Origin: an uncultured Clostridia bacterium
Lineage (GTDB): Bacteria > Bacillota > Clostridia > Christensenellales > Pumilibacteraceae
NCBI GenBank assembly: GCA_947086925.1
Contig: CAMUAL010000001.1
Coordinates: 1-64,000, forward strand
Direction of reading: 5' to 3'
DNA: 64,000 nucleotides
Shown piece by piece: positions 13,326-54,794 of the stretch; positions within the stretch are counted from its first letter, which is position 1; each line of letters starts with the position of its first letter. Position numbers and translations under genes: made by a program. A model generated the notes under the pieces. The model was not told the origin of the DNA. It was given only the letters and a program-made list of their open reading frames with translations, and made no database searches.

Positions 13326-13351
13326 GTCATTCCGAGCGTAGTCGAGGAATC
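13326..13351 (+). repeat. dispersed hairpin repeat unit (family A, AT-stem variant gtcattccgagcgtagtcgaggaatc)
   Basis: Stem attcc/ggaat around conserved loop gagcgtagtcga; same family as copies at 33148, 37248, 39450, 39553 and inverted copies at 33108, 39486, 54769. Confidence 0.8.
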
Positions 13352-13485
13352 TTATCTTTAATCTAATTCAATGCCCCTTTGGGGCGGTGGAACACAAGGG
13401 GGGGGAATTCCAATTATTCTCTGCCTTGTATTTTCCGTGTCATTGGCGGGTGATTTTTTTAAGGAAATCGGGTGGCGGAAGCAAT

Positions 13486-13514
13486 TTGACTTTATCGGCT
13501 CGGAGTGTTATACT
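13486..13514 (+). promoter_or_regulatory. promoter TTGACT-17-TATACT for tsaD (near-leaderless)
   Basis: -35 13486-13491, -10 13509-13514; predicted TSS ~13521, ATG at 13523. Confidence 0.45.
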
Positions 13515-13522
13515 ACGCCTAT

Positions 13523-14596
13523 ATGTATATTGAACTCGCACAACAACAATTCGATAAAATAAAGAACAATCCCGACGCGGTTATTTTGGGCATAGAAAGC
13601 TCATGCGACGAAACTGCGGCGGCGGTTGTGCGCGGCGGAAGAATTATGCTGAGTAACGTAATCGCCTCGCAAATCGAAATACATAAGCGTTTCGGCGGCG
13701 TAGTGCCTGAGGTTGCAAGCCGCAATCATACGCTTGCTTTGCCAGATATAATCGACGAAGCTTTAAAACAGGCAAACGTGAGCGCAAGCGATTTGAGCGC
13801 GGTTGCCGTAACTTACGGCGCGGGACTTATCGGCGCACTGCTTGTGGGAGTGGCGGCGGCAAAGTCGTATGCCTATGCAATAAACAAGCCGCTTATAGCC
13901 GTAAATCATATAGAGGCGCATGTTTCGGCAAACTATATTTCGCACCCGGATTTAAAGCCGCCCTTTTGCGCGCTTGTGGCGAGCGGCGGACACACTCTTT
14001 TGCTGAATGCGACCGATTACAATAAGTACGCAATGCTCGGCGGTACGCTCGACGACGCGCTCGGCGAAGCGTTCGATAAAGTCGCGCGCGTTTTGGGACT
14101 TCCGTACCCCGGAGGACCGAACGTAGAAAAGCTTGCGCACGAAGGCTCGGCAAATATCCGACTATATAAGCACCCCAAGGGTGTGCGCGAAGATTTGTCG
14201 CTTTCGTACTCCGGACTTAAAACCGCAGTGGTAAATTATGTGAACACGTTAAGACAAAAGGGGGAGAAAATCCCCGTTGCCGATATATGCGCCTCGTTTA
14301 CAAGCGAGTCGTTGTCGCTTTTGGCTAAAACCGCGTCGGAGGCAATGAAGCGTACGGGATACAGCCGACTTGTGCTTGCGGGCGGGGTTGCCTCTAACGG
14401 CGATTTGCGCAGACTTCTTTGTGCCGAGGGCGAAAAAAACGGTTTTACAGTGAGTTTCCCGCCGCACGTGCTTTGCACCGACAACGCCGCCATGGTTGCG
14501 TCACGCGCTTACTTCATGGCGCAAGACGGGTTGGGACTTGCCGATTTGAGCCTTAACGCAAAATCCCACATACCTTTCGAGGAAAAAATATTATGA
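13523..14596 (+). CDS. tsaD: tRNA N6-adenosine threonylcarbamoyltransferase TsaD (Kae1/Gcp family)
   Basis: ILGIESSCDETAAAVV N-terminus, metal-binding His pair region (HIEAHVSANY), conserved C-terminal CTDNAAM; ATG 13523 chosen because track GTG start 13505 overlaps the -10. Confidence 0.85.
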   Translation: MYIELAQQQFDKIKNNPDAVILGIESSCDETAAAVVRGGRIMLSNVIASQIEIHKRFGGVVPEVASRNHTLALPDIIDEALKQANVSASDLSAVAVTYGAGLIGALLVGVAAAKSYAYAINKPLIAVNHIEAHVSANYISHPDLKPPFCALVASGGHTLLLNATDYNKYAMLGGTLDDALGEAFDKVARVLGLPYPGGPNVEKLAHEGSANIRLYKHPKGVREDLSLSYSGLKTAVVNYVNTLRQKGEKIPVADICASFTSESLSLLAKTASEAMKRTGYSRLVLAGGVASNGDLRRLLCAEGEKNGFTVSFPPHVLCTDNAAMVASRAYFMAQDGLGLADLSLNAKSHIPFEEKIL

Positions 14597-15720: not shown

Positions 15721-15807
15721 AAAATTCTCTTTTGAGATTATATTTTTTGCGTTGTACGTACTTTATCGTTTATAATAAAGCAAAGAAATAAAAAACGGAG
15801 AGTTTAT

Positions 15808-16674: not shown

Positions 16675-16703
16675 AATTTTATAAAATCGTAAAAACAAAA
16701 ACA

Positions 16704-16745: not shown

Positions 16746-16761
16746 TTGCAGTTTGCCTGAT

Positions 16762-32317: not shown

Positions 32318-32929
32318 ATGAAAGACCCGTACAGTGTGCTCGGATTATCCCCCGAAACTCCCGAAGAAGAACTTAAAGCGCGTTACGAAGAACTGAAAGC
32401 CGAGTACGGCGAACAGCGTTTCAAAACGGGAGCAGAGGGCAACGAAGGCGCGCGCAAGTTAAGCGAACTCGAAGCCGCATGGAGCGAAATTTCCGCGAAG
32501 TTCGGCAAACGCGAATCGCAGGAGACGTTCGGCGACGTCGATTACGGAGAAATCGACGACCTTATAAAAAAGGGCGAATATAACGAGGCGCAAAACAAAC
32601 TCGACGAAATTACCGACCGCAATGCTCAGTGGCACTATTTGCAATCTATTATATATTACAAGCGCGAGTGGATGAACGACAGCCGTATTCAGCTTGCCGA
32701 GGCGGTTAAAATGGACCCGACTAACGAAAAGTACCGTTCCGCGCTCGAAAAGCTCGATTTGGTTATAGGGAATCCGCAAGTCGACCCGCGCACCATAGGC
32801 GCGAACGGCGAGCAACCTACGCGTCAGCAAGACAACGGGCAGGTTTGCGGCGGCAATACATTAAGCAACTGCTGTTTGGCATATCTGTGCACAGATTGTT
32901 GCTGTACTATGACGCGCTGTTGCGGTTAG
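32318..32929 (+). CDS. J-domain-like (no HPD) + TPR-like + Cys-rich C-terminal tail protein
   Basis: RBS aggag; N-terminal DPYSVLGL... J-like fold lacking HPD; central TPR-like helices; last 29 aa contain 11 Cys (CGGNTLSNCCLAYLCTDCCCTMTRCCG). Confidence 0.6.
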   Translation: MKDPYSVLGLSPETPEEELKARYEELKAEYGEQRFKTGAEGNEGARKLSELEAAWSEISAKFGKRESQETFGDVDYGEIDDLIKKGEYNEAQNKLDEITDRNAQWHYLQSIIYYKREWMNDSRIQLAEAVKMDPTNEKYRSALEKLDLVIGNPQVDPRTIGANGEQPTRQQDNGQVCGGNTLSNCCLAYLCTDCCCTMTRCCG

Positions 32930-33107
32930 CAAGGCATATACGGGGCATCTCGACACTGCGTGTTCGTTGCCAATCGGTTATATATATGTAAAATACACTC
33001 TCGCGCGGGCAACGCAACCGTTGTGTCAATCCGCAACCCGTCTCCGTCGCCGTAAAAAACCCCTGCCTTAGACGGGGGGGGGATTAAAAGGGGCGGGAAT
33101 TAAAAAG

Positions 33108-33173
33108 GACCTCTCCGCTACGGTCGAGGTGACAGTGTAGCGGCTATGCCATTCCGAGCGAAGTCGAGGAATC
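33108..33173. repeat. pair of family-A hairpin repeat units (inverted unit 33108-33133, forward AT-stem unit 33148-33173)
   Basis: gacctctccgctacggtcgaggtgac and gccattccgagcgaagtcgaggaatc read directly. Confidence 0.8.
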
Positions 33174-33193
33174 TAAAAAAAACGAGGCGATTT

Positions 33194-33721
33194 ATGAGTC
33201 ATACGCGGAAAATAACATATTCGGCAGTGGGAGCCGCAATCAGCGCGGTGTGCGTGTGTCTTACGAATTTCGGTTGGCTTAAAGTATCGCTCCTTATGTT
33301 TGCCGCACTGTGCTATTATATAATTTTTATTAAATGTGGTCTGTTTTACGGACTTGCCGATATTGCAATAAGTCTGCTTGTGGCGTTTTTTGCGTTCGGC
33401 ATAACGCCGCTGAGTTCGGCGTTTTTGCTCGATTCACTTATTTTTGCGCCGTTTTCGCTATTGTGCTATATAATAAAAAAACTTTATTATACAAAATGGC
33501 AAACGGCTTTGATTCGTCTTGTTATAATGGCGGCGTTTGCAAACGCGTCGCTTGTGGCGGTATGGTTTACCGCAAAGTGGATTACCACAATCGATATATT
33601 TATGATTGCGTCACGCATAGGGGGATACGCCGTGCTTGCAATGCTGTTTACTTTGTTTGCTTTGATATTCGACTTTCTGTTTAATCAGTTGAGCATACGG
33701 ATAGTAAAACTCATAAAATAA
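33194..33721 (+). CDS. hypothetical 5-6 TM membrane protein (ECF-S-component-like size/topology)
   Basis: Start at ATG 33194 (gagg RBS); track start 33146 lies inside the repeat element; 175 aa, strongly hydrophobic. Confidence 0.5.
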   Translation: MSHTRKITYSAVGAAISAVCVCLTNFGWLKVSLLMFAALCYYIIFIKCGLFYGLADIAISLLVAFFAFGITPLSSAFLLDSLIFAPFSLLCYIIKKLYYTKWQTALIRLVIMAAFANASLVAVWFTAKWITTIDIFMIASRIGGYAVLAMLFTLFALIFDFLFNQLSIRIVKLIK

Positions 33722-33758
33722 AAACTTTAATCAATTACGGAAAATCCGAAAAAATCGC

Positions 33759-33788
33759 TTGACACCGCTGTGCCGTGTGTGCTAACAT
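33759..33788 (+). promoter_or_regulatory. promoter TTGACA-18-TAACAT upstream of rpmG-secE-nusG
   Basis: TTGACA 33759-33764, TAACAT 33783-33788. Confidence 0.45.
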
Positions 33789-33851
33789 AAATAAGCACCG
33801 CAGTATGGGGTGTTATTTTTTCTATGCGAACTTATAAAGGAGTAAACATAA

Positions 33852-34013
33852 ATGGCTGCTACTACCAGAACGCGTATAACGCTTGCCTGCACCGAGTGCA
33901 AACAGCGCAATTACGACAATATGAAGAACAAAAAGAACGACCCCGACAGAATCGAGCTTAAAAAATACTGCAAGTTCTGCCAAAAGCACACCGTTCATAA
34001 GGAGACGAAGTAA
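33852..34013 (+). CDS. rpmG: 50S ribosomal protein L33 (not in ORF track)
   Basis: [53 protein letters not shown]; zinc-ribbon CxxC...CxxC; canonical position before secE. Confidence 0.9.
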
Positions 34014-34015
34014 CA

Positions 34016-34339
34016 ATGGCGAATGATAAAAATTCGCAAGGCGAAAAGGTAAAAAAGCGCAGTCGCGTTAAAGAAACTTTTGCCGAACTCAAAAAGGTTA
34101 CTTGGCCTACTTTCGGCAAAACCATGAAACAGACGGGAGCCGTTTTGGTGGTAACTCTGTTCTTCTTTGTTATACTTCTTATAATGGATTATCTTCTCGG
34201 CTTGGCGCACAAGGCACTTATAACGGGTATCGGCGACGCGTCCGATGCAACCGCGGCTGTATCGAACTTGCTCGGCGGACTTAAAAGTTACGCTTGCGCA
34301 CTGTTTAACGGCGCGCCCGCTTTGCCTTTACTGATATAG
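34016..34339 (+). CDS. secE: preprotein translocase subunit SecE (with ~40-aa C-terminal extension)
   Basis: AGGAG RBS; basic N-terminus + single TM (LVVTLFFFVILLIMDYLLGL); 107 aa is longer than usual SecE. Confidence 0.75.
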   Translation: MANDKNSQGEKVKKRSRVKETFAELKKVTWPTFGKTMKQTGAVLVVTLFFFVILLIMDYLLGLAHKALITGIGDASDATAAVSNLLGGLKSYACALFNGAPALPLLI

Positions 34340-34343
34340 GCAG

Positions 34344-34940
34344 GTGAACACCGTGGAAGAAGAACTTACGACTACACCCGAGGTTGCGGATATTCAATCC
34401 GAGTCCGCGCCCGCTCAGCCCGAGCCCAAATGGTATGTGCTTCATACTTACTCGGGTTACGAGAACATGGTGCGCGATAACCTGAAAATGGTTTTCGAAA
34501 AGAACAATATGCTCGACCGTCTTGTTAAAATCACTATTCCTATGGAAGACGTGGTAGAGGAGAAGAACGGTAAGCGCAAAATCGTTCAACGCCGTATGTT
34601 CCCGTGCTACGTACTTATAAAAATGGTTTACGACAATAGCATGTGGCACATGATAACCAACACCCGCGGCGTTACCGGCTTTGTAGGGCCCAAAGGTTAT
34701 CCTTTGCCGCTCACTGCCGACGAAATCAAGCGCATGCACATCGACGACGACACATTGGTTGTCGAAACCGATTATCACGTGGGCGACCGCGTAAAAGTTA
34801 CGCAAGGTCCTTTGGAGGGATTTATGGGCGAAATCGACACAATCGATGCCGCCGCAGGCAAATGCCGCGTAACCGTGAGCATGTTCGGACGCGAAACTCC
34901 CGTGGATTTGGAGCTTAGGCAGATAGAACACGCCGAATAA
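34344..34940 (+). CDS. nusG: transcription termination/antitermination factor NusG
   Basis: NGN domain (KWYVLHTYSGYEN) + KOW (GDRVKVTQGPLEGFMGEI); GTG start at 34344 or 34353 (28-aa N-extension, no in-frame ATG upstream of KWY). Confidence 0.85.
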   Translation: MNTVEEELTTTPEVADIQSESAPAQPEPKWYVLHTYSGYENMVRDNLKMVFEKNNMLDRLVKITIPMEDVVEEKNGKRKIVQRRMFPCYVLIKMVYDNSMWHMITNTRGVTGFVGPKGYPLPLTADEIKRMHIDDDTLVVETDYHVGDRVKVTQGPLEGFMGEIDTIDAAAGKCRVTVSMFGRETPVDLELRQIEHAE

Positions 34941-34988
34941 TTACGGTATTGTATAGTAGCGCGTCTTTCCGCTACGCTTGCCGCGCCC

Positions 34989-35047
34989 GCTCGGTCACGT
35001 ACGCCAATGTACGCTCGCTCGCGTGTGCGCCAACTGTTGCGAAAATC
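34989..35047 (+). repeat. dispersed repeat family B copy (gctcggtcacgtacgcc...cgcgtgtgcgccaactgttgcgaaaatc)
   Basis: ~59-bp segment ~80% identical to 54687-54745; located in the unusually long nusG-rplK spacer. Confidence 0.8.
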
Positions 35048-35160
35048 CGCACCACTCTCCGCCACTTCGGCGGAATTAAAAGAAACAATTCGGGAGAACG
35101 GCAGTGGCTGTTCGGTTGTACCGCGATTGCTATATAAAATAAGCAAGGAGAAACAAAACA

Positions 35161-35586
35161 ATGGCAAAAAAATTGCAAGCAGTAGTAAAGCTTCAACTGC
35201 CCGCCGGCAAGGCGACCCCGGGACCTCCCGTTGGTAGCAGCCTCGGTCCGCACGGCATAAACATTCCGGGCTTTACAAAAGAGTTCAACGAAAAAACGCG
35301 CGGACAAGAGGGACTTATAATCCCCGTTGTAATCAGCATATATGCCGACCGTAGCTTTACGTTTGTGCTTAAAACCCCGCCCGCGGCAGTCCTTATCAAA
35401 AAGGCTTGCGGAATCGAGAGCGGAAGTGCTAAACCCAACAAAGACAAAGTAGCTAAAATCACAAAAGCTCAGCTTACAGAGATAGCTACAACCAAAATGC
35501 CCGACCTTAATGCGGCGTCGCTCGATGCGGCTATAAGCATGATAGCGGGAACGGCGCGCAGTATGGGCGTTACCGTGGTAGACTGA
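35161..35586 (+). CDS. rplK: 50S ribosomal protein L11
   Basis: [12 protein letters not shown]...GPHGINI signature. Confidence 0.95.
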
Positions 35587-35600
35587 GGAGGGTTAGCATA

Positions 35601-36284
35601 ATGAGCGGAAAGAATTACAGAGATAGCGTTAAAGCACTTGATTTATCTAAATTATACGACCCTGCCGATGCAATCAATGCGGTTATAGCCTCGGCAAAAG
35701 CGAAGTTCGACGAAACGGTAGAACTTCACGTGCGCCTCGGCGTAGACCCCCGTCAGGCGGACCAGCAGGTTCGCGGCACGGTTGTACTTCCCAACGGAAC
35801 GGGTAAGTCGGTTAAAGTTTTGGTTATCGCAAAAGGCGACAAAGCCGATATTGCGGTTAAGGCCGGCGCCGATATCGTAGGAGCGGAAGAAATCATTGCA
35901 AAAATTCTCAACGAGAATTACCTTGATTTCGACGTTGTTATAACTTCGCCCGACATGATGGGTCAAATGGGTAGAGTAGCTAAAATCCTCGGTCCCAAAG
36001 GCTTGATGCCTTCGCCTAAGTCCGGAACGGTTACTCCCGACATCGAAAAGGCCATTAAAGAAACCAAAGCAGGTAAGGTTGAATACCGCGTAGACAAAAC
36101 GGCTATTATTCACTGCCCCATAGGCAAAAAGTCGTTCGGTGCGGACAAACTCTTAGAGAACTTCAACGTGCTTATGGAAGCCATTGTAAAGGCTAAGCCC
36201 GCCGCGGCAAAAGGCACTTACATTAAGAGCGTTTACACCGCGTCTACAATGGGTCCCGGCGTAAAGGTTAATTACAGAATTTAA
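35601..36284 (+). CDS. rplA: 50S ribosomal protein L1
   Basis: Translation matches uL1; position after rplK. Confidence 0.95.
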
Positions 36285-36537
36285 TCGCGCGGCAGTTGCG
36301 GATTAAAGCAAAGCAACAATCCAAAAACACAACGCACTCAATTAAATAACCTAAGACAACAAGCGTTTAACAAAACTCAAATGATTGAAAAATCGGCTTG
36401 TCGAGGTGTTTATATCTTTTAATTGCAAAGCACGATTTAAGTGCGGCAAACGTAAAAGACTCTGACGCCTCGTTTAATCGGGGCGTTTGTTTTATAGCAA
36501 CCACGGTTGCGAAAAATAAAACAGGAGGTAAAAAAGA
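36285..36537 (+). promoter_or_regulatory. rplJ (L10) 5' leader region
   Basis: 250-nt noncoding stretch upstream of rplJ in conserved position of the L10 autoregulatory leader; structure not verified. Confidence 0.4.
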
Positions 36538-37035
36538 ATGTCAAAAGAAGCAATCGCACAAAAGGCACAGCAGGTAGAAGAAATCGTCGAAAAGGTTAAA
36601 AAAGCCAAAAGCGTAGTGCTTGTCGATTACCGCGGTCTTACCGTTGCGCAAGACACCGAAATGCGCGTAAACATGCGTAAGGCGGGCGTTGATTACAAAG
36701 TGCTTAAAAACCGTCTTGTTCTGCGTGCGTTCAACACTTGCGGATTCGACGGATTCGAGAAGATTCTCGAAGGTCCCACCGCAGTTGCGTTCGGCTACGA
36801 AGACGCGGTAGCTCCCGCAAAAATCGTTTCCGAAACCGTTACGAAAACCAACAACAAGATTGCAATCAAAGGCGGCATAATCGAGGGCAAACAAGCGGAC
36901 GTAAACGAGATTAACGCGCTTGCGAAAATCCCCGCAAAACCCGTTCTTGTCGGACAGTTGCTCGGCATGCTCACCAATCCCATGCGCAGTCTTGCCGTTG
37001 CAATCAGCGAAATCGCAAAAAAGCAGTCGGCTTAA
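36538..37035 (+). CDS. rplJ: 50S ribosomal protein L10
   Basis: Translation matches uL10; RBS aggagg. Confidence 0.95.
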   Translation: MSKEAIAQKAQQVEEIVEKVKKAKSVVLVDYRGLTVAQDTEMRVNMRKAGVDYKVLKNRLVLRAFNTCGFDGFEKILEGPTAVAFGYEDAVAPAKIVSETVTKTNNKIAIKGGIIEGKQADVNEINALAKIPAKPVLVGQLLGMLTNPMRSLAVAISEIAKKQSA

Positions 37036-37247
37036 CCGCATGATTGCGTAAAGGCTGTAAGAGCCACATCCTTTAATTCCCGCGCCGAGGGCAGGGGATA
37101 AAAAGGATAATAATTTCCCGCCGAGGGCAGGGGGAAATGCAACAAAACACCGCGAGAGCGGGAACTCACAATCGGCGCAAACAAATAAAACGGCGTCGGT
37201 GTGAAATTAAAAGTTTTTGAAAGGCTTTTTACAAAAAGCCGAACCGT

Positions 37248-37321
37248 GTCATTCCGAGCGCAGTCGAGGAATCTTAAAGATTTCTCCGCTAAGTGACTGT
37301 CGTCGCTTAGGTCGAAATGAC
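37248..37321. repeat. family-A hairpin repeat pair (forward unit 37248-37273; interrupted inverted unit 37283-37321 with nested hairpin insertion)
   Basis: gtcattccgagcgcagtcgaggaatc then tctccgcta[agtgactgtcgtcgcttag]gtcgaaatgac; also G-rich mini repeats cccgcgccgagggcagggg (37069-37087) and tttcccgccgagggcagggggaaa (37105-37127) upstream. Confidence 0.75.
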
Positions 37322-37364
37322 ATGCCGATTATCAAACAAATAAAATAAGGAGTTTTAAAAAATC

Positions 37365-37742
37365 ATGGCAGATTTAAATAAAATGTTAGAAGAAGTTAAG
37401 GGTATGACCGTTGTTGAACTCAACGAGTTCGTTAAAATGCTCGAAGAAGAATTCGGCGTATCGGCAGCCGCTATGGCTGTTGCGGCGCCCGCGGCAGGCG
37501 GAGCGGCGGCAGCTCCCGCAGAGGAAGAAAAGACCGAGTTCAACCTTGCGCTCAAAGAAGTAGGCGCAAACAAGATTGCGGTTATCAAAGTTGTTCGCGA
37601 AATCACCGGCTTGGGACTCAGCGAAGCAAAGGCTTTGGTAGACGGCGCGCCTTCCACCGTAAAGGAAGCTATGCCCAAGGAAGCAGCCGAAGAAGCTCTC
37701 AAAAAGTTGCAGGAAGCAGGCGCAACCGCCGAACTCAAATAA
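37365..37742 (+). CDS. rplL: 50S ribosomal protein L7/L12
   Basis: Ala-rich hinge, C-terminal domain ending ...AGATAELK. Confidence 0.95.
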
Positions 37743-37770
37743 TTTCTTTAATCGGTATAATAAAACAAGA

Positions 37771-37806
37771 AGACACGCTGTGGATAAACACGGCGTGTTT
37801 TTTGTT
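37771..37806 (+). terminator. rho-independent terminator after rplL
   Basis: Stem acacgctgtg/cacggcgtgt + tttttt. Confidence 0.8.
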
Positions 37807-37898
37807 GTACAGCATAACCGAAAATCGGTTGTATTTGCTTGACAAAAATTCGGGGGGGGGTACACTTGAATAAATAAAGCAAAAGAGGAAGATGGGCT

Positions 37899-39485
37899 GT
37901 GGATAACGGTCGCAAAAAATTCAGAGAAAAACACCCGACCTTATGTGAAATAGCGCGTTTTATCATAGTCGGCGGAATAGCCACGCTTGTAGATATGTTT
38001 GTAATGGGATTGGTGCTTTATGCCTTTAAGCCGAGCCTGTACCCGAAGTTCTATAACATATTTTACGGCGGCGGACAACCGAGCGCTTCGGCAACCGTGG
38101 TGGGAACGGGTAGCGGATTTATATCGGGGCTTATAGTAAATTACGTACTTTCGATATTCTTTGTGTTCGAGCATAAGGGCAAAAGTAAGTCGGCGGTGGG
38201 CTTTTTGGTGTTTACGCTTTTGTCGGCTGTGGGACTTGCCATTCACTTGCTCGGCATGTATCTCGGGTACACCGTACTCGGCATAAACGAGTGGATAGTT
38301 AAAATAGTACTTACGCTTATAGTTCTTGTGTACAATTATGTTTCCAAACGGCTATTGCTGTTTAAAAAATCAAAAGCCGCCGATGCAAAAGCGGATAACG
38401 CGTCTACGGAGAAAACGTCCGAATCGCAAGAAGAACTGTATTTGAGAATAGGCAAGCACGACGACAAAAAAATTAAAATAAGCATTGTAGTGCCTTGTTA
38501 TAACGAAGAAGCTTGCATCGAAAAATATTATAACGCCATGCAAGAAGTTGTGTCCGCTCTCCCCGCCGACTTCGAATACGTATTCGTAGACGACGGCAGT
38601 CGCGACGGTACTCTGCGGTTGATTCGCAAGCTTGCGGAGTCGGACGGCAGAGTGAGATATATCTCGTTTTCGCGTAACTTCGGAAAAGAGGCGGCAATGC
38701 TTGCGGGGCTTAAAGCGGCGAGCGGCGATTTGGTGGGGCTTATGGACGCGGATTTGCAAGACCCGCCCGAAATGCTTAAAGATATGTTCTACGGAATAGC
38801 AGACGAGGGGTACGATTGCGTTTCGTGTCGCAGAACCGACCGCAAGGGCGAAAGTAAAATACGCAGTGCGTTTGCGCGATTGTTTTACAAACTTATAAAC
38901 CGAATGAGCGACGCCGAGATAATGGACGGTGCGCGCGATTACCGCCTTATGTCGCGCAGAATGGTAAACGCCGTTTTGGATTTAACCGAGCGCGAGCGTT
39001 TCAGCAAAGGAATATTCGGCTGGGTGGGATTTAAAACCAAGTGGCTCGAATACAATAATACCGAGCGCGTGGCGGGCACGACAAAGTGGAGCTTTAAAAA
39101 GCTTACCAAATACGCGATAGGCGGAATAGAGGATTTTTCGACCGCACCTCTCAAATTTAACTTTGTAATGTTCGGATTATGTTTTTTTGCGGCGGTATTT
39201 TTTGCCGTGTTCGATATAGCATGGGCATGCACATCGCACAAAGTCGGCATTGTACTCACTTTAATGCCGATACTTTTATTTGTCGCGTCATTGCTGTTTG
39301 CGGGCATAGGGATACTCGGCGAATACGTTAAAAAGATTTTTTACGAGGTAAAGGCGCGGCCCGTTTATTTGGTGCGCGAAACCGAGCAATCGGCAAAAGC
39401 GGCTAAGGCGAACGACAAGCCGAACACAGTCACCCCGCCACCGAGTAATGTCACCCCGAGCGAAGCCGAGGGGTCTATCGAATAA
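37899..39485 (+). CDS. GtrA-like flippase domain fused to GT2 (GtrB/CsbB/DPM1-like) polyprenol-phosphate glycosyltransferase
   Basis: GTG start with RBS agagga; N-term GtrA-like 4-TM domain (IARFIIVGGIATLVDM...), GT2 domain (IVVPCYNEE..., DDGSRDGT, DAD), two C-terminal TM helices; last ~20 codons lie inside family-A repeats (NVTPSEAEGSIE). Confidence 0.8.
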   Translation: MDNGRKKFREKHPTLCEIARFIIVGGIATLVDMFVMGLVLYAFKPSLYPKFYNIFYGGGQPSASATVVGTGSGFISGLIVNYVLSIFFVFEHKGKSKSAVGFLVFTLLSAVGLAIHLLGMYLGYTVLGINEWIVKIVLTLIVLVYNYVSKRLLLFKKSKAADAKADNASTEKTSESQEELYLRIGKHDDKKIKISIVVPCYNEEACIEKYYNAMQEVVSALPADFEYVFVDDGSRDGTLRLIRKLAESDGRVRYISFSRNFGKEAAMLAGLKAASGDLVGLMDADLQDPPEMLKDMFYGIADEGYDCVSCRRTDRKGESKIRSAFARLFYKLINRMSDAEIMDGARDYRLMSRRMVNAVLDLTERERFSKGIFGWVGFKTKWLEYNNTERVAGTTKWSFKKLTKYAIGGIEDFSTAPLKFNFVMFGLCFFAAVFFAVFDIAWACTSHKVGIVLTLMPILLFVASLLFAGIGILGEYVKKIFYEVKARPVYLVRETEQSAKAAKANDKPNTVTPPPSNVTPSEAEGSIE

Positions 39486-39578
39486 GACCTCTCCGCTACG
39501 GTCGAGGTGACAAGGGTGGCATTTACGGTCGAGGTGACAAATCGGCATCATAGTCACCCCGAGCGAAGCCGAGGGGTC
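39429..39578. repeat. cluster of family-A hairpin repeat units: forward 39450-39475, inverted 39486-39511, partial 39525-39538, forward 39553-39578, half-copy 39429-39445
   Basis: gtcaccccgagcgaagccgaggggtc x2, gacctctccgctacggtcgaggtgac, acggtcgaggtgac read directly; adjacent forward/inverted units can pair as a long imperfect hairpin. Confidence 0.85.
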
Positions 39579-39606
39579 TGTTTAAGAATAATAAAAGGGA
39601 AGAAAA

Positions 39607-42255
39607 ATGTTCTCGTTTTTTACTTGTGACGAAGAAAAGAAATCCAAAACCGACGCTCTTAAAAGATGGGGCGTCTTTTTGGGGATTGCGATATTCGCGC
39701 TGTTTTTGTATGTTTTGCCGTTTATGATACGAGGCAATTATCTTGCTTGGGGCGGCACGGGTGCATATTCGGACGGAATAGCTCAACACGCCACGTTTTT
39801 GGAATATATGTTCAAACACGGTTTATTTTCGGGCTTGGGCGAGTACGATTATAACATAGGCTTGGGGGCGGACTATGCGGTAGCGTTTGCGTATTATACC
39901 ATGTTCGACCCCGTAAACTTTTTGCTGTACATATTGCCGAGAAGTAACTTTTTACTGTCGTATTCCGTTCTTGCGTGCATAAGATTTTTAATATGCGCGA
40001 TTTGCATGTATGTGTATTTACGCAGTCATAAGGTGCGTCAGACGCTTTCGGTGGTATTTTCGGTGGCTTACATGCTGTCGGGTTATATAATGTTCACGTT
40101 CACCCGTCATCCGTGCCTAACCGCGGGGGCAATGTATTTGCCGCTTATAACGCTAGGACTCGAAAAGGCGATAGATAAAAACAATCCGTTTATCTTAATA
40201 GCGTTTACGTTTTTGACTACGATAAGCTCGTTTTACATGGCATACATGGTAACGATTTATGCGGTTCTGTATGCAGTATTATATTACGTCAATAAAGTCC
40301 ATGCGCAAGGTGAAAAGATAAAGGCAAGAAAATTCGCGGCGGTATTTTTCCGCACGGCGGGATATTATTTAATAGGATTATTGATTGCGTCGTTTATGCT
40401 GTTTCCCGTGGCATACGGGTACATTACAGGTGCAAGAGGCGACAGTAAAGGTCTTGCAATATTCTCTCCGTTTGATTTACTGAGTATATTCGTAAGTTTT
40501 TTTGCACCGTATGCGGGCAAATGTTATACCGCCGTTATGTTAAATATAGTTGCGGTGCTGCTCGGATTCGCCGCGTTTGCGGCATGTCCGCGCGCGGTAA
40601 TGAGCAAGATGACGGTTATTTTAACTGTTTGTCTGTTTATTCCCGTTGCGGGATACGTAATGAATATATTCAATTATGCAAACAACCGCTACACGTATAT
40701 GTTTTCGTTTTGTGCTTACGCGCTTATTGCGCAGTTTCTCAACGGTTTAAACAGCGGCGAGATTAAGAAAAAGGAGCGTAGCATTATAATAAAAGGAGCG
40801 GTTACGGTGTGCGTAATCGCTGTGAATTTGGTTGTATGGTGGCTGATTTATTCTATTGTGGTTAAAGCTCACGCGGTTTTCGGTGCGCTTATTGCAACTG
40901 CGGCGGTGGCTGTTACCGCATCTTCGGCATTTGCGCTGTACGGATTTTACAAAACCGATATTTCCGGCGACGTCATATTCAAAAAGATAGGGTATGGCGC
41001 TTTGATTTGGGCGTTCGTAGGATTCGTTTTGGTGCAGGCGGTGATATTCGGCGCCGTTTATTCTTCGCAATTCAACGATAACGGCAAACGGTACAGTGCG
41101 TATGTAAGCGCGCCGGAAACTTATGCGGCGACGACGAAAACGGATGATTTCGTTCGTTTGGATACCTATGCCGACGCTTGCAACCGACCGCTTAACAACG
41201 GCTATAAAGGTACGGTTATTTATAACAGTATGTACGGCGAGTCCGTTTCGGAATTTTTATCGGCAAATATGCTCTACACGTTTTCGCCCACGCTCGGCAT
41301 GTCGGGTCTTAACGGGCGCACGGCGTTGCAGGCTTTGCTTTGCACTAAGTATTATTATGCTACTAAAACGGTCGTTACTCCGACGGGATTTAACGAATCG
41401 GAAGATATAAGCGGATTGTATATAGCCGACGATTACGTGCGTTTCGGCACGGTATTTGAAAATACTGTCAGCGAGGAATTTTTATATTCCATACCCGAGA
41501 TTGAACGTCAGTATCTGATGCTTAGCGGCGTGGTTATCGAAAACGGCAAAATAACGGAATATACTCCGCTTGTTGCCAAAAAGGAATCTACGGAAAAAGC
41601 GTTTACTTTGTATCCCGAAAACACAAAGAATATTAACATAGACGGTGCGCTCGGAGCTGATATTTATTTAAAAATTCGATTGGCGGAATTGCCGACAAAG
41701 AAAACCGTAGTTACGGTGAGTTGCGGCGAGGAGTCGTTCGAAATCGAGGTCGCGCCCAAAGGGCATCAGATGTATACGGGGCAAACCGAGTGGCTTATGA
41801 AGCTCGACGGACGTTCGGACAATGTGAGTATAAGCATAAAGAACGGCATGGAACTGAAATTCGAAGAAACGGAATTTTACGAGGTAAGCGAAGCCGCAAT
41901 AATGCAACTGATACGCGCGGCGTCGGCGCGGGCGCATTTAACCGATACCGAATTTAATTCTCGCGGATTCGTCGGTAAAATAAATTCAAGCGGCGGCACA
42001 ATGCTTATTCAGTTGCCGTACTCCAAAGGTTGGAAAGCCGAGGTTGACGGAGAGCGTGCGGAAGTGAAAAAAGCCGATTGTGGGCTTATGGCAATAGAGG
42101 TATCGGGCGGCGAACACGATGTGAAATTCACGTACCGCACGCCGTGGCTCAATGCCGGAATAGCCGTAACCGCGGTTGCCGCGGCCGTATGCGCAGGCTT
42201 AATCGTTGCGACGACGGTAATAAAGCTTAGGCGGCGCGAGCGTAAGAACGGTTAA
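39607..42255 (+). CDS. YfhO-family polytopic membrane glycosyltransferase-like protein
   Basis: 882 aa; N-terminal motif SDGIAQHATFLEY resembles the YfhO D-x-x-x-Q-H-Y/FP signature; ~13 TM helices then large extracytoplasmic domain and terminal TM; genomic pairing with a CsbB/GtrB-type GT2. Confidence 0.7.
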   Translation: MFSFFTCDEEKKSKTDALKRWGVFLGIAIFALFLYVLPFMIRGNYLAWGGTGAYSDGIAQHATFLEYMFKHGLFSGLGEYDYNIGLGADYAVAFAYYTMFDPVNFLLYILPRSNFLLSYSVLACIRFLICAICMYVYLRSHKVRQTLSVVFSVAYMLSGYIMFTFTRHPCLTAGAMYLPLITLGLEKAIDKNNPFILIAFTFLTTISSFYMAYMVTIYAVLYAVLYYVNKVHAQGEKIKARKFAAVFFRTAGYYLIGLLIASFMLFPVAYGYITGARGDSKGLAIFSPFDLLSIFVSFFAPYAGKCYTAVMLNIVAVLLGFAAFAACPRAVMSKMTVILTVCLFIPVAGYVMNIFNYANNRYTYMFSFCAYALIAQFLNGLNSGEIKKKERSIIIKGAVTVCVIAVNLVVWWLIYSIVVKAHAVFGALIATAAVAVTASSAFALYGFYKTDISGDVIFKKIGYGALIWAFVGFVLVQAVIFGAVYSSQFNDNGKRYSAYVSAPETYAATTKTDDFVRLDTYADACNRPLNNGYKGTVIYNSMYGESVSEFLSANMLYTFSPTLGMSGLNGRTALQALLCTKYYYATKTVVTPTGFNESEDISGLYIADDYVRFGTVFENTVSEEFLYSIPEIERQYLMLSGVVIENGKITEYTPLVAKKESTEKAFTLYPENTKNINIDGALGADIYLKIRLAELPTKKTVVTVSCGEESFEIEVAPKGHQMYTGQTEWLMKLDGRSDNVSISIKNGMELKFEETEFYEVSEAAIMQLIRAASARAHLTDTEFNSRGFVGKINSSGGTMLIQLPYSKGWKAEVDGERAEVKKADCGLMAIEVSGGEHDVKFTYRTPWLNAGIAVTAVAAAVCAGLIVATTVIKLRRRERKNG

Positions 42256-42344
42256 TTTTATCGTTTTACCGCAGTAAAATAATTGAAGAATCAATGAGGA
42301 TATGGTATAATTGTCGGGTAAAGCATAAGAAAAGGCAATTATAA

Positions 42345-43637
42345 ATGGGTTCGATAGAGGTTCTCAAAATTATAATATCGGTTTTGGCGGGTATAGGCAC
42401 GGCGCTTACCGTAATGAAAGCGTACCGTTATTTATACTTGCTCGGCTGGTTTCATAAAACAAAGTTTAAGGCTACCGAAAACAAACACAAGTACGGAATA
42501 TGTATAGCGGCGCGCAACGAAGAAAAAGTAATCCGTAACCTTTTGGAAAGTATAGACGCGCAAGATTACGATTTGAGTCTGTTGACGGTTTTTGTCGTGG
42601 CGGATAACTGTACCGACGGCACGGCGGACGAAGTGCGTCGGTTTATGCAGACAAGCAATGTGAAAATAGTTTTATATGAACACAACAATCCCGACGAGCG
42701 CACAAAAGGCTATGCGCTACGGTATTTGTTCGATTGCATAAAAGCCGACGGCGGAACCGATTTATACGACGGTTATTTTATTTTCGACGCCGATAACGTA
42801 TTGGCAAAAGACTATGTGTCGCGCATGAACGAAGCATTCGATGCCGGTTACGATGCAGTTACTTCTTTCCGAAACTCCAAAAATACGGGGCAAAATTGGA
42901 TTTCTTTTTCCTATGCGATACATTGGCTCGGCACGTGTTTAAACGAGCATCGCGGAAAAAATATGTTGCATTTGTCGTGTCGTTTGCAAGGAACGGGCTT
43001 GCTGTTTCACAATAAATATGTGAGCAACGGTTGGAATTACGTGACGTTCACCGAAGACCGCGATTTTTGCTCGGATATCGTTGTCAAAGGCGGCAGGGTG
43101 GTGTATTGCGAAGATGCGAAGTTTTACGATGAACAGCCGTATAAACTGAAAGTCGCACTGCGACAACGCGTGCGGTGGGCAAAAGGACACTTGCAGTCGT
43201 CGGTTACAAACGGACCGAAACTCATTAAAAACACATTTAAGTTCAATAGAAACAGCTTGCGTTCTTACGATATTTTTTGGTTGAATTTCCCCGCGCCCAT
43301 AGAGAGCATTATCCGAAAGCTAATCTCGTGGGCGTTGCAAATCTGCGTCGGCATATTGGTAGGTACGTGGTGCGGCGTTATAATAGGAATATTGACGGGA
43401 ATAGGTTGGGGATACCTTAAACATTGGATTCAGTACATGGCAACCGCCGTTTTCGTATATGTGTACTATCATAAGCACATACAAAAGATTCCGTTTTTCA
43501 AATTGTGCTTTTATGTTCTTATGAACCCTTTCTTTACCAAAATAGGCACATGGTCGAATTACGTAGCTCTTTTTAAAAAAGTGGAATGGAAAGAAATACC
43601 GCACGATTACACCGTAGACTTAAACAAATTACCGTAA
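42345..43637 (+). CDS. membrane-embedded processive-type GT2 glycosyltransferase (D,D,D,QxxRW)
   Basis: N-terminal TM, GT2 catalytic core (ARNEEKVI, VADNCTDGT, FDADN, QRVRWAKGH), 3-4 C-terminal TM helices. Confidence 0.75.
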   Translation: MGSIEVLKIIISVLAGIGTALTVMKAYRYLYLLGWFHKTKFKATENKHKYGICIAARNEEKVIRNLLESIDAQDYDLSLLTVFVVADNCTDGTADEVRRFMQTSNVKIVLYEHNNPDERTKGYALRYLFDCIKADGGTDLYDGYFIFDADNVLAKDYVSRMNEAFDAGYDAVTSFRNSKNTGQNWISFSYAIHWLGTCLNEHRGKNMLHLSCRLQGTGLLFHNKYVSNGWNYVTFTEDRDFCSDIVVKGGRVVYCEDAKFYDEQPYKLKVALRQRVRWAKGHLQSSVTNGPKLIKNTFKFNRNSLRSYDIFWLNFPAPIESIIRKLISWALQICVGILVGTWCGVIIGILTGIGWGYLKHWIQYMATAVFVYVYYHKHIQKIPFFKLCFYVLMNPFFTKIGTWSNYVALFKKVEWKEIPHDYTVDLNKLP

Positions 43638-43664
43638 AAAGATTAAAAATTATGTAAAAATTGT

Positions 43665-43726
43665 TTGACACAGTTGTAATTACTGTGATACAATGATAAG
43701 GCTGTGCGTCTGCGCAGCCCTTTTTT
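43665..43726 (+). promoter_or_regulatory. promoter-like TTGACA-17-ATACAAT immediately followed by GC hairpin + T6 (terminator 43700-43726)
   Basis: TTGACA 43665-43670, -10 43688-43694, stem ggctgtgcg/cgcagcc(c) 43700-43720, tttttt 43721-43726. Confidence 0.45.
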
Positions 43727-44013
43727 GACGAGAGATTAGGTGTGAAACCGAAGGTTACCTGCATAAAATTAGCGAGGTGCGGGAGAACTTCGGCGGACCG
43801 AGTGCGGCGAGGCATGCCGTGCGGCGAAGTGAGCGTCGAAAAAGAAAAACGCAAAAGGCTTGTGGGCGAACCGTCGGTTATAATCCGAAAGGCGCAAATA
43901 CTGCTTGAAACATTACGGCGGGTAAAACCGCTTATCGTTTTCGCAAAAAGTAGACCCGCCCGACTGCGTTGTAATTAGCTTCGCAAATGCTAAACGGAGG
44001 TAAAACAAAAATA
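43727..44013 (+). promoter_or_regulatory. S10 operon 5' leader region
   Basis: ~290-nt noncoding stretch upstream of rpsJ; track ORF 43742..43978 here is unlikely to be a real CDS. Confidence 0.4.
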
Positions 44014-44322
44014 ATGGCTAGTCAGAAAATCAGAATCAAGTTAAAGGCATACGACCATGACCTGATTGACCAATCGGCGGCAAGAATCGTCGAAACGGCA
44101 AAGAAAACCGGCACGAAAGTATCCGGTCCCATACCTTTGCCTACGGACAAGGAAGTGGTTACGATATTGCGCGCGGTGCATAAGTATAAGGATAGCAGAG
44201 AGCAATTCGAACTTCGCACCCACAAGCGTTTAATAGACATTTACAGCCCCTCGGCGAAAACGGTTGATTCACTTATGAAACTCGACCTTCCCGCGGGCGT
44301 AGATATTCAAATCAAGCTGTAA
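44014..44322 (+). CDS. rpsJ: 30S ribosomal protein S10
   Basis: Start at ATG 44014 (GGAGG RBS 43996-44000); [15 protein letters not shown]... Confidence 0.95.
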
Positions 44323-47448: not shown

Positions 47449-47450
47449 GT

Positions 47451-51189: not shown

Positions 51190-51201
51190 GGGAGGCTCAG
51201 T

Positions 51202-51744: not shown

Positions 51745-51756
51745 GGAGCGTAAAAT

Positions 51757-52119: not shown

Positions 52120-52134
52120 CGGAGGAAATCGGAA

Positions 52135-52647: not shown

Positions 52648-52657
52648 GAGAGGCGAT

Positions 52658-52873
52658 ATGGCTACAAAAAAGACCGATAAAGCCGCTGATAAGATGCTTA
52701 AAGTTACGCTTGTAAAAAGCACAATCGGCAGCCTTGAAAAGCATAAAAGAACAGTTCAGGCATTGGGACTTAAAAAAATTCGTTCCAGCGTTGTGGTACG
52801 CGACAATCCCGCTATGCGCGGAATGATTTTCGCGGTTAAGCACCTTGTGAGCGTAGAGGAGGTACAAGCCTAA
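52658..52873 (+). CDS. rpmD: 50S ribosomal protein L30
   Basis: Translation matches uL30 (71 aa, slightly extended N-terminus). Confidence 0.9.
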
Positions 52874-53316
52874 TGAAAATGAATGACATTTCACCCGCGG
52901 CGGGTGCGAGAAAAGCACCCAAGCGTTTGGGGCGCGGTATCGGTTCGGGTACCGGAAAAACCAGCGGTAAAGGACACAAGGGACAGTGGGCAAGAAGCGG
53001 CGGCGGAGTACGTCCCGGCTTCGAGGGCGGACAGATGCCGCTCAGCCGCAGAATACCCAAATCGGGTTTTGACAACCGCTACAAGAAAGTATATTCGATA
53101 GTAAATCTCGACGACCTCAATTCGTTTGACGACGGTGCGGTTGTGAACGCCGAGGAGCTTAAAAAAGCGGGCGTGCTCAGCAAAATCGAACCTTACGGAT
53201 TAAAGGTGCTCGGCAACGGAGAACTCACCAAAAAAGTTACCGTTCAGGCTAAGAAATTCTCGAAATCCGCAGCGGAAAAAATAGAGAAGGCCGGCGGTAA
53301 AGCAGAGGTGTTGTAA
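52873..53316 (+). CDS. rplO: 50S ribosomal protein L15
   Basis: Gly-rich N-terminus typical of uL15. Confidence 0.95.
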
Positions 53317-54638
53317 TGTTTCAAACTCTCGTTAACGCGTTTAAGAATAAGGACGTAAGAAAAAAGATTCTTATTACTTTGGCGCTTATGTTTGTTTACC
53401 GCTTAGGGTGTTGGTTGCCTATTCCCGGTATAGCCGGCGAAACTTACACCGGCTCGGTCGGCAATTCGGGTAACATACTCGACTTGCTCGGCATGATTAC
53501 CGGCGGCGCGCTTCAAAACGGTGCTTTTCTTGCAATAGGAATATCGCCGTATATCAATGCGTCGATTATCATTCAGTTGCTTACCGTTGCTATCCCCCCA
53601 CTTGAAAGACTCAGTAAGCAAGGTGACGAGGGCAGAAAGAAACTCAACAAAATAACAAGATACTTCACTTTGGTACTTGCCGTTGCGCAAGCCGCGGGTA
53701 TTTTGGTTAGCTTTGTAAATTCCGATTCAATCAGTACCGGCTTGTTCGGCGTGGCATTGCCCGAATGGCTTGTGTGCATGTTCGTAGGCATTATACTCGT
53801 ATCCGGTTCTATGTTCACAATGTGGCTCGGCGAGAGAATCACCGAAATCGGAGTAGGTAACGGCATTTCGCTCCTTATCTTCGTAGGTATCCTTTCCACC
53901 GCAGGCATAAGCATTGTATCGGTATTCACCATTTGGTTCAGCGGCAGTGCGGGTGCGGATATGGCCCCGTGGGCACTGTTGGCGTTCGCTTTGCTTGTAA
54001 TACTTATCTTTGCGTTTATTGTATTCGTAGACCTTGCCGAGCGCAAGATTCCCGTGCACTACGCAAAACAGATTAAAGGTCGCAAGCAGTACGGCGGACA
54101 AACCACATATATTCCCATTAAAGTAAACGCAAGCGGCGTATTGCCCATCATATTTGCAACCGCAATACTTTCGTTCCCTCAGCTCATAATGTCGCTGTTC
54201 AACATGGACAATGCTTTTTATACATGGTGGCAGAAATGGCTCGGAACGGGGCAACCCATTTATATAGTTGTAATGGGACTGCTGATATTGTTTTTCAGTT
54301 TCTTCTATGCGCAGATTCAGTTCAATGCAGAAGAAGTCGCACGCAATATTCAGCAGTACGGCGGAAATATTACCGGATTACGTCCCGGCAAAATGACAAG
54401 CGAATATCTTAACAGAGTAAACAAGCGTTTAACTTTGTTCGGTGCGATATTCCTTGCGATTATCGCAATCGTTCCTTCGCTTATATTCAGTTTCGTATTC
54501 CAAAACAGCGAAGCGGCGTCGCTTGTAAACGCGTTCAGCGCAACAGGTATGCTAATCGTTGTATCGGTGGCTATCGAGTTCCAAAAACAACTTGAAAGTC
54601 AGCTTATGATGAAGCAGTATCGCGGTTTCTTGAAATAG
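53316..54638 (+). CDS. secY: preprotein translocase subunit SecY
   Basis: 10-TM SecY signature, 440 aa. Confidence 0.95.
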   Translation: MFQTLVNAFKNKDVRKKILITLALMFVYRLGCWLPIPGIAGETYTGSVGNSGNILDLLGMITGGALQNGAFLAIGISPYINASIIIQLLTVAIPPLERLSKQGDEGRKKLNKITRYFTLVLAVAQAAGILVSFVNSDSISTGLFGVALPEWLVCMFVGIILVSGSMFTMWLGERITEIGVGNGISLLIFVGILSTAGISIVSVFTIWFSGSAGADMAPWALLAFALLVILIFAFIVFVDLAERKIPVHYAKQIKGRKQYGGQTTYIPIKVNASGVLPIIFATAILSFPQLIMSLFNMDNAFYTWWQKWLGTGQPIYIVVMGLLILFFSFFYAQIQFNAEEVARNIQQYGGNITGLRPGKMTSEYLNRVNKRLTLFGAIFLAIIAIVPSLIFSFVFQNSEAASLVNAFSATGMLIVVSVAIEFQKQLESQLMMKQYRGFLK

Positions 54639-54686
54639 TCGGCTGCATATACGGGCGCATCTTAATTGTTTGGGTGTTTGTTGCTC

Positions 54687-54794
54687 GCTCGGTCAGGTGC
54701 GTATTTGTACGCGTTCTCGCGTGCGCGCCAACTGTTGCGAAAATCAGTGCCGAGTTAAATTAGGGAAAGCCCCCTCCGCTACGGTCGGGGTGAC
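54687..54794. repeat. family-B repeat copy (54687-54745) followed by inverted family-A hairpin unit (54769-54794) in secY-adk spacer
   Basis: gctcggtcaggtgcgtatttgtacgcgttctcgcgtgcgcgccaactgttgcgaaaatc and gccccctccgctacggtcggggtgac read directly. Confidence 0.8.

Follow-up and report, generated by a model that had tools for sequence, protein, structure and literature searches.

A YGTC-tagged hairpin repeat with a tandem G·A and triloop core, found across many bacterial phyla and probably a REP-type DNA element, in core operons of a Clostridia genome

A 64,000-nt stretch of DNA from an uncultured Clostridia bacterium of the Pumilibacteraceae (assembly GCA_947086925.1, contig CAMUAL010000001.1, positions 1 to 64,000; hereafter the window) carries a dispersed hairpin repeat whose copies are probably units of a repetitive extragenic palindromic (REP)-type DNA element, non-coding, non-autonomous, active at the level of DNA and moved, as an extruded hairpin, by an enzyme acting in trans. 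The unit, whose structure is shown by covariation and control scans, is about 30 nt long. It comprises an unpaired 5' tag YGTC, a 5-bp stem of free sequence but obligate pairing, an invariant tandem G9·A20/A10·G19, a covarying 11-18 pair with a spare pyrimidine at position 17, a C12-G16 pair that closes a G-N-A triloop, and a 3' tail C-T-Y. The same core is present in well over a dozen bacterial phyla, with drifting stems; the lineage-specific part is the presence of copies at these loci, not the core itself. Units occur solo or as inverted, often heterologous dimers, an arrangement comparable to that of bacterial interspersed mosaic elements (BIMEs) or of REP doublets forming hairpins (REPINs).

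The original prediction listed nine copies, all of which were found, with none expected by chance (Table 1). A degenerate pattern allowing up to three mismatches matched eight full 26-mers in the window and none in 100 dinucleotide shuffles, and a covariance model of the family, run unfiltered on the window, recovered these eight and no others (33-43 bits, E ≤ 5.5e-6), the remaining scores all lying below 11 bits. The remaining listed copy, given as '37283', is a long variant with a net insertion of 17 nt at the triloop position; the inserted helix sits exactly between C12 and G16, extending that helix, and this copy, the tail-to-tail partner of the unit at 37248, received no covariance-model score. 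Altogether the window holds 10 units or part-units against 0 expected by chance, and all copies are intergenic or lie inside the last 12 codons of an open reading frame (ORF). The window thus shows what generically defines a REP, an imperfect palindrome of 20-40 bp that is repeated and extragenic. Two subtypes are distinguished: subtype A (GTCAYYCCGAGCGNAGYCGAGGRRTC) always lies on the + strand of the window and subtype B' (GTCACCTCGACCGTAGCGGAGAGGTC) always on the - strand. The loop of the inverted copies had been thought to be the complement of that in the others; on its own strand an inverted copy reads GACCGTAGCGGAG, not GAGCGNAGYCGAG, and the cores of A and B' differ by a compensated exchange of G11-C18 for C11-G18.

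The family was scanned with the pattern GTCA-N4-GAGCG-N-AG-N-CGA-N4-TC, in which stem positions 5-8 and 21-24 are free, so that pairing between these columns is not an effect of ascertainment. Among 115 distinct 26-mers, 94.8% of the stem cells are paired, as against 76.4% in shuffles, and 177 double changes were counted against 56.6; neither observed value was reached in any of 500 shuffles, and shifting the pairing partners abolishes the covariation signal. Pairs 5-24 to 8-21 use C-G, U-A, G-C and A-U, and there are 27 distinct stem types. The covarying stems that had been proposed earlier are therefore borne out, more strongly than they had first appeared.

The segment between the two arms had been described as a conserved loop. 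It is conserved, but it is not an unstructured loop, as it contains the tandem G·A, the covarying pair and the C-G-closed GNA triloop. In core variants with up to two mismatches, position 11 is changed in ten cases, and in each of them position 18 has changed so as to restore the pair (nine C-G, one A-T). Scans of IMG/VR in which this pair was G-C gave 93 matches in 74 stretches, 75 of them with a perfect 5-bp stem, and the C-G form gave 26 matches, 10 of them perfect; the non-pairs C·C and G·G gave 33 and 10 matches, with 0 and 1 perfect stems, respectively. When the tandem G·A was replaced by Watson-Crick pairs on either side, perfect stems were found in 0/10 and 2/10, which is background, indicating that the tandem G·A is a required feature and not a tolerated mismatch. 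Across 218 copies C12, G13, A15 and G16 are invariant, and N14 is A in 91, T in 50, C in 41 and G in 36. At position 0 of the tag T predominates (161 of these copies), with 45 C, 8 A and 4 G; 217 of the 218 retain GTC, most of the set having been selected with GTC fixed, and GTCA is present in 25 of 34 copies found outside the scan pattern. The 3' tail begins with C in 213 of 218 copies, followed by T (145) or C (43) and then by C (100) or T (47).

The apex of the unit corresponds to the d(GCGNAGC) mini-hairpin of Hirao et al. Residues G11-C12-G13-N14-A15-G16-(C17) match it exactly in about one third of copies, two of them in the window, with the same C-G closing pair and with N free, as expected for the solvent-exposed middle base of a GNA triloop. 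The likeness is not complete: about two thirds of copies have T17, and in B' position 11 is C, the outer pair is 11-18 and position 17 is bulged. The motif here also lies inside a larger hairpin, whereas its known natural uses (phage origins, ssiA, N4 promoters) are single sites. A closely related octamer-based mini-hairpin, GCGAAAGCT, melts at about 82 °C; the mini-hairpin is much less stable as RNA, and as DNA it resists nucleases and binds single-stranded-DNA-binding protein (SSB) poorly (PMC13037366). If the structural model is true, d(TGTCATTCCGAGCGAAGTCGAGGAATCT) would be far more stable than its RNA, and this stability would be lost on changing the G·A pairs or the GNA loop.

A likeness to hammerhead or kink-turn motifs, suggested by CUGA...GAA and the tandem G·A, was rejected by reasoning from the known consensus motifs, since a 3-nt bulge is missing and covariation shows C7 and Y8 to be paired bases. 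Close relatives of the unit with other cores were also seen (L180:4292-4425, L222:2345-2455 and L234:3590-3615; L numbers denote individual loci), all of which keep the tandem G·A. They include 25-nt relatives that lack the bulged pyrimidine (GTCATCCTGAGCGAAGCGAAGGAC and GTCATTGCGAGCGTAGCGAAGCAATC), and there is a relative with a CTTG loop (GTCATTCCGAGCTTGCCGAGGAATC).

Where units lie within 200 nt of one another, 29 neighbours across loci are inverted and 4 direct, in keeping with the earlier description of a dispersed intergenic hairpin family occurring in both orientations and often as adjacent inverted pairs. Four inverted pairs are found in the window, with spacers of 5-41 nt, and the dimers there join A to B'; that at 39450-39511 folds as a single 62-nt hairpin (-18.9 kcal/mol, z = -4.5). 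Many dimers join two different stems, each arm having its own hairpin, as in A + B' of the window or ATGTC + ATTCC in Verrucomicrobiota. In locus L041, units of about 210 bp bounded by inverted hairpins share further sequence (AACGCG...) and lie between P2-like tail genes. Set against the definition of a miniature inverted-repeat transposable element (MITE; a unit of 100-400 bp with terminal inverted repeats and a target-site duplication), the L041 units measure about 210 bp and the window spacers 5-41 nt. The label 'REP/MITE-like' given to the repeat at the outset was right in kind. Several loci are mosaics that also hold GTAG-tagged REPs; among IMG/VR contigs, L002, L004 and L042 combine YGTC hairpins with GTAG-tagged REPs (e.g. 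TTGTAGGGGCCGATGACCACATCGGCCC) in mosaic, multi-family spacers.

The element probably acts at the level of DNA, and every test points that way. An element working as RNA around housekeeping operons, be it by terminating transcription, stabilising 3' ends, marking an RNase processing site or binding a protein, would agree with the co-orientation of all window A copies with their flanking genes. Escherichia coli REPs are established stabilisers of upstream mRNA, as PMC3733652 discusses, and tandem G·A pairs and GNA loops are found in RNA too. We nevertheless regard this explanation, and with it the 'small RNA motif' of the original prediction, as quite improbable. In orientation tests on 232 units with crude gene calls, 95 lay in tandem, 23 in convergent and 28 in divergent spacers, and in the tandem spacers 42 units were co-oriented with transcription against 53 opposed. 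Heads and tails face gene starts and stops about equally, with no positional preference, and the window rule of A on the + and B' on the - strand is broken in other Clostridia metagenome-assembled genomes (MAGs), where both subtypes occur in both orientations. Stem mismatches are G·U in 6 cases and A·C in 8, both being equally rare. At the gathering threshold Rfam gave no match on any copy in the window, the sole matches being a tRNA and the L10 leader elsewhere, and a permissive scan of 39380-39640 gave only a chance match to mir-1991 (20 bits, threshold 66). Two copies lie inside the spacer of the rplJ-rplL operon, and the core corresponds to the mini-hairpin that is stable as DNA and much weaker as RNA (PMC13037366).

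Two regulatory candidates were rejected. As an intrinsic terminator, the unit has no T-run and no orientation bias, and the 17 terminator-like calls in 32900-39700 all lie off the copies. As a promoter, the inverted head TGACA resembles a -35 box, but -10-like hexamers stand at 16-18 nt in 3.8% of cases against 4.7% of controls.

The repeat had been called species-specific, which does not hold: other Clostridia MAGs hold 26-mers identical to those of both window subtypes, and the core extends far beyond these genomes. GTDB species-representative genomes gave at least 120 matching stretches, the stem being fully paired (5/5) in 108 of 120 among the matches listed. Carriers among these listed matches include Bacteroidota (Hymenobacter, Pedobacter, Algoriphagus, Flavobacteriaceae, Saprospiraceae, Prevotella), Ignavibacteria, Rhodothermales, Verrucomicrobiota (Udaeobacter, Chthoniobacterales), Kiritimatiellia, Acidobacteriota, Planctomycetota (Pirellulales, Scalindua, Phycisphaerae), Chloroflexota, Armatimonadota, Dormiibacterota, Zixibacteria, Saccharimonadales of the candidate phyla radiation (CPR), Vampirovibrio, Bdellovibrionota, Alpha- and Gammaproteobacteria, Campylobacterota (Helicobacteraceae) and Clostridia (Christensenellales, Oscillospiraceae). 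Taxa were taken from the database records, in which individual MAG assignments may be wrong, although the breadth is not in doubt.

At the level of individual loci the copies are patchy. In same-species contigs both rplJ-rplL copies are unchanged, and the syntenic 21-kb ribosomal-protein stretches of three relatives with 77-81% SecY identity (L202, L204, L205) hold no copy; the secY-adk spacer measures 13 nt in L202 and 279 nt in the window. Relatives at 83-85% SecY identity, L233 and L234, have three different variants between them and the window at the orthologous secY-adk position: GTCATTCCGACCGTAGTCGAAGAATC on the + strand in L233, the 25-nt relative GTCATTGCGAGCGTAGCGAAGCAATC on the + strand in L234, and B' on the - strand, inverted relative to the other two, in the window. 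Since units at orthologous sites are different or absent, they appear to turn over within a short evolutionary time, by gain, loss, replacement or inversion.

Among known repeats, the CGTC-tagged REPs are the closest in kind. As Di Nocera, De Gregorio and Rocco (2013, BMC Genomics 14:522; PMC3733652) describe them, they have a tag CGTC, TGTC or CCTC, a stem beginning with A-T, stems of 8-9 bp, loops of 4-5 nt and a CCA tail, form dimers, occur in five phyla and have no known dedicated transposase; they include Neisseria dRS3 (= CGTC-1) and Rickettsia RPE-4 and RPE-6. With that description the present units share the unpaired 5' tag CGTC/TGTC, a length of about 26 nt, extragenic location, single units together with inverted homo- and heterodimers, occurrence in several phyla including Bacteroidetes, and the lack of a known dedicated transposase. 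Peptides in the supplement back-translate to GTCATTCCCGCGAAAGCGGGAATC for CGTC-1 and to about CGTCATTCCGAGCTTGTCTCGGGATC for CGTC-2 (Sulfurovum RHSELVSGS). The frame GTCATTCC...GGAATC is identical to that of CGTC-1 and CGTC-2, and the stem likewise starts with A-T and then T-A; the nearest family appears to be CGTC-2. In our set pair 4-25 is A-T, fixed by the scan pattern, and pair 5-24 is T-A in 80 of 115 26-mers and C-G in 17; the second stem position is C-G in five of the eight full 26-nt window copies. The two kinds differ in the rest of the hairpin. CGTC-1 to CGTC-4 are described as having uninterrupted 8-9 bp stems, loops GAAA, CTTGT or CTTGA and the CCA tail, whereas in the present units the outer Watson-Crick stem is 5 bp long, the two pairs adjoining it give way to an obligatory tandem G·A, one inner pair with a bulged pyrimidine follows, the CGNAG triloop hairpin (loop CGNAGY) caps the structure, and the tail is C-T-Y. 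The present family is also spread far wider than the CGTC REPs as reported there, reaching Firmicutes, Verrucomicrobiota, Acidobacteriota, Planctomycetota, Chloroflexota and CPR. Because the published definitions of stem, loop and tail fail, we place the units as a variant within the YGTC-tagged kind and not as a member of CGTC-1 to CGTC-4. They appear to be an undescribed family inside a known kind of REP, set apart by the definitions given in that paper, although a degenerate consensus in its Figure 2 could cover them. A string search of the literature with the core sequences matched no paper.

The GTAG-tagged REPs, BIMEs and REPIN-RAYT systems of E. coli and Pseudomonas (RAYT, REP-associated tyrosine transposase) share with the present units a short imperfect palindrome, an unpaired tetranucleotide at the foot, an irregular stem, inverted dimers that can fold as one long hairpin, intergenic location and lineage-specific expansion. 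They differ in the tag, which is GT[AG]G in place of YGTC (GTAG occurs here only as one of the four NAG variants inside the triloop region), and in being variable between species where the present core crosses phyla; nor was a flanked RAYT found here. The subterminal hairpins of IS200/IS605 elements and of their MITE derivatives, the palindrome-associated transposable elements (PATEs), are, like these units, imperfect single-stranded DNA (ssDNA) hairpins with a tetranucleotide nearby, recognised in those systems by HUH-Y1 enzymes. Those hairpins, however, have the same orientation at both element ends, are biased by replication strand and accompany tnpA/tnpB genes, and no such gene was seen here.

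On the REP-type reading that we favour, the hairpin would extrude from single-stranded or supercoiled DNA and would be recognised, through the tag and the non-canonical core, by a trans-acting enzyme that then copies or moves it. By analogy the likeliest enzyme would be an HUH-Y1 (RAYT-like) nuclease or transposase, as for GTAG REPs and as proposed for the CGTC-1 REPINs of Neisseria. The Neisseria REPIN built on ATTCCCGCGCAGGCGGGAATC (= CGTC-1) tracks a Group 2 RAYT and decays where this RAYT is frameshifted (Park et al., bioRxiv 10.1101/2021.07.10.451892), which makes an HUH-Y1 partner the most plausible mechanism to suggest here.

A number of results weigh against this reading. Searches by tblastn with the E. 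coli RAYT and 12 RAYT/TIRYT sequences found no RAYT in the window and a single match across 1.56 Mb of loci; Di Nocera et al. likewise report no transposase for CGTC REPs (PMC3733652). The sole match, L180:3689-4261 (-) in Hymenobacter metallilatus, has a dimer of a related 25-nt hairpin directly upstream and belongs to a family of single-copy Hymenobacter RayT proteins with an NHxH motif, which fall below the Pfam Y1_Tnp threshold (L180, L207-L232). This RayT was rejected as the cognate enzyme, the 26- and 25-nt hairpins being absent within 2.5 kb in 27 further loci. Two of the 27 metagenomic loci of the RayT family carry the CTTG-loop relative, most have other species-specific palindromes downstream, and the long ones (e.g. 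in L211, L219, L226 and L228) are probably its real cognate REPs. Mobility would be read from patchy presence only: a search for empty sites in same-species contigs and more distant relatives gave no clean filled/empty pair or insertion boundary, the more distant relatives differing by whole composite spacers. The stability of the unit as DNA is likewise argued from the published mini-hairpin and tandem G·A data and not from the present folding, in which nearest-neighbour models, having no terms for these motifs, give the monomers -1.6 to -5.5 kcal/mol with z of 0 to -1.7. Of the solo units at |skew| > 0.04, 58 lie on the strand that is locally richer in C and 33 on the other, a weak tendency (p = 0.011, unadjusted) that misfits a simple model with the G·A strand on the lagging-strand template. 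Finally, the copy count for the source genome is that of its 64-kb window.

A more tentative proposal, possible though in our view doubtful, is that the non-canonical core is the recognition element of a conserved ssDNA enzyme or host machinery other than a classical GTAG-type RAYT, the family then being an orphan pan-bacterial repeat. Shared recognition machinery of this sort would account for one 12-nt core being kept, despite freely drifting stems, across Clostridia, CPR, Bacteroidota, Verrucomicrobiota and Planctomycetota. Conservation of the core across well over a dozen phyla would also be explained if the unit were not selfish but a DNA structural site used by the host, an SSB-excluding, nuclease-resistant ssDNA hairpin or cruciform kept by selection, for instance to serve in priming or loading, or to bind a conserved host protein (gyrase, a nucleoid protein or a helicase, for example). 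The specific retention of the tandem G·A and the failure of the above searches to find a transposase favour such a role, as does the use of mini-hairpins, with their poor SSB binding, by primases and the phage N4 RNA polymerase (PMC13037366). We consider a host-used site of this kind, and the roles named for it, unlikely. Copies are patchy among close relatives, with none in the three syntenic 21-kb stretches; variant and orientation differ at a single orthologous site; no positional rule relative to genes was found; elsewhere, copies were found in prophage modules and at random intergenic sites; and dimers and mosaics of this sort are typically seen in REPs and MITEs.

It is very improbable that the units are mainly target sites, that is, landing pads for IS110/IS1111-type insertion sequences or phages that spread passively. 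CGTC-1/dRS3 repeats and the REPs of E. coli and Pseudomonas are known insertion targets of this sort, and the copies share mosaic spacers with other repeats, but the origin of hundreds of units with a conserved core would be left without explanation. No insertion sequence or integrase adjoins any copy in the window, and beside the dense clusters of L041 and L090 the ORFs have phage-tail and housekeeping functions, none of them being a transposase. On balance the REP-type element moved in trans remains the reading that we prefer.

Table 1. Hairpin units and part-units in the 64-kb window, with strand, sequence and covariance-model score.
Feature	Position	Strand	Sequence	Score (bits)	Location and arrangement
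Subtype A unit, solo	13326..13351	+	GTCATTCCGAGCGTAGTCGAGGAATC	43.1	Spacer between release-factor gene and tsaD; preceding T gives a TGTC tag
Subtype B' unit	33108..33133	-	GTCACCTCGACCGTAGCGGAGAGGTC	37.4	Head-to-head with 33148 unit, 14 nt apart
Subtype A unit, GCCA head	33148..33173	+	GCCATTCCGAGCGAAGTCGAGGAATC	38.7	
Subtype A unit	37248..37273	+		43.2	rplJ-rplL spacer; kept in same-species contigs L196-L200
Long B' variant, 43 nt	37279..37321	-	GTCATTTCGACC[TAAGCGACGACAGTCACTTA]GCGGAGAAATC		Helix between C12 and G16 instead of triloop
Possible remnant	39429..39445	+	GTCACCCCGCCACCGAG		Within 3' end of GT2 ORF; weak, chance possible
Subtype A unit	39450..39475	+	GTCACCCCGAGCGAAGCCGAGGGGTC	42.3	Exact GCGAAGC (39460-39466)
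Subtype B' unit	39486..39511	-		37.4	Tail-to-tail with 39450 unit, 10-nt spacer
Half copy of B' (5' half on - strand)	39524..39538	-	+ strand reads TACGGTCGAGGTGAC		Identical to 39497-39511
Subtype A unit	39553..39578	+		42.3	Identical to 39450 unit; exact GCGAAGC (39563-39569); 28 nt upstream of yfhO start
Degenerate B' unit	54769..54794	-	GTCACCCCGACCGTAGCGGAGGGGGC	33.2	A4 opposite G25; secY-adk spacer, directly downstream of a second repeat (element X)

All copies in the window sit between + strand genes. The spacers concerned are those between the release-factor gene and tsaD, rplJ and rplL, the GtrA-GT2 ORF and yfhO, and secY and adk, together with one between two unannotated ORFs, the second of which lies upstream of secE-nusG. 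The GtrA-GT2 ORF (37899-39485) ends in VTPSEAEGSIE*, 11 residues that come mostly from the unit at 39450. The end of this ORF (39393-39485) reads ...TVTPPPSNVTPSEAEGSIE*, its C-terminus being read from the hairpin unit and from a possible remnant of another; the annotated protein tail is thus derived from the repeat.

The rplJ-rplL spacer (37035-37365) is 329 nt long and, besides its two units, holds a duplicated motif TTCCCGC(G)CCGAGGGCAGGGG. Strains are polymorphic here, one same-species contig (L196/L199) being without one 36-nt repeat unit. From 37365 to 44322 the gene order is rplL, GtrA-GT2, YfhO and a second GT2 gene, followed directly by rpsJ, with no rpoB, rpoC or rpsL-rpsG-fusA-tuf in the interval from rplL to rpsJ. 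At about 38-42 kb the GC skew is markedly higher and the AT skew is near zero or negative.

Element X, a long and imperfect hairpin measuring about 120 nt, lies downstream of gene ends at 32925-33050, 34950-35060 and 54640-54760, with the landmarks CATATACGGG ... GTAC-loop-GTAC ... CTCGCG ... CCAACTGTTGCG. Hairpin units of the present family come after two of these three copies. It also occurs in the secY-adk spacers of relatives (L233:2499-2625, L234:3486-3612 and L205:11333-11470) and is absent from that of L202. RNAalifold gives it 39 pairs, 19 with compensatory changes, and no Rfam match was obtained. The secY-adk spacer of L205 contains, at 11495-11570, a different hairpin repeat, GCTCCCCTTAGCAAGGGGAGCTGTCGCCGAAAGGCGACTGAGGGGAT, of a type that is common in gut Firmicutes and that often yields ...GELSPKVTEGL... 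on translation of spurious ORFs. Two near-exact 40-nt tandem duplications were also found, both intergenic (9329-9408 and 57148-57223); one is CGGCAAAAAACCGAAATCATTTAAACAATAAAAAGCA(C/T)GG repeated twice, and the other has a period of 40 with two copies of a 36-nt core, CAGTTCCGTAAGTCAGGTTACGGGTTGATATTAAAA.

Few non-coding features are as common in bacterial genomes as REP-type repeats, yet for the CGTC/TGTC branch neither the mobilising enzyme nor a function is known. A short and precisely defined structure, combining the tandem G·A with the mini-hairpin, would give a sharp handle on who moves or uses CGTC-type REPs, and the carriers include the culturable genera Hymenobacter, Pedobacter and Algoriphagus as well as many uncultured phyla. 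The units become spurious peptide tails, as at the end of the GtrA-GT2 ORF, and lengthen the spacers of core operons, so that recognising them would improve the annotation of MAGs.

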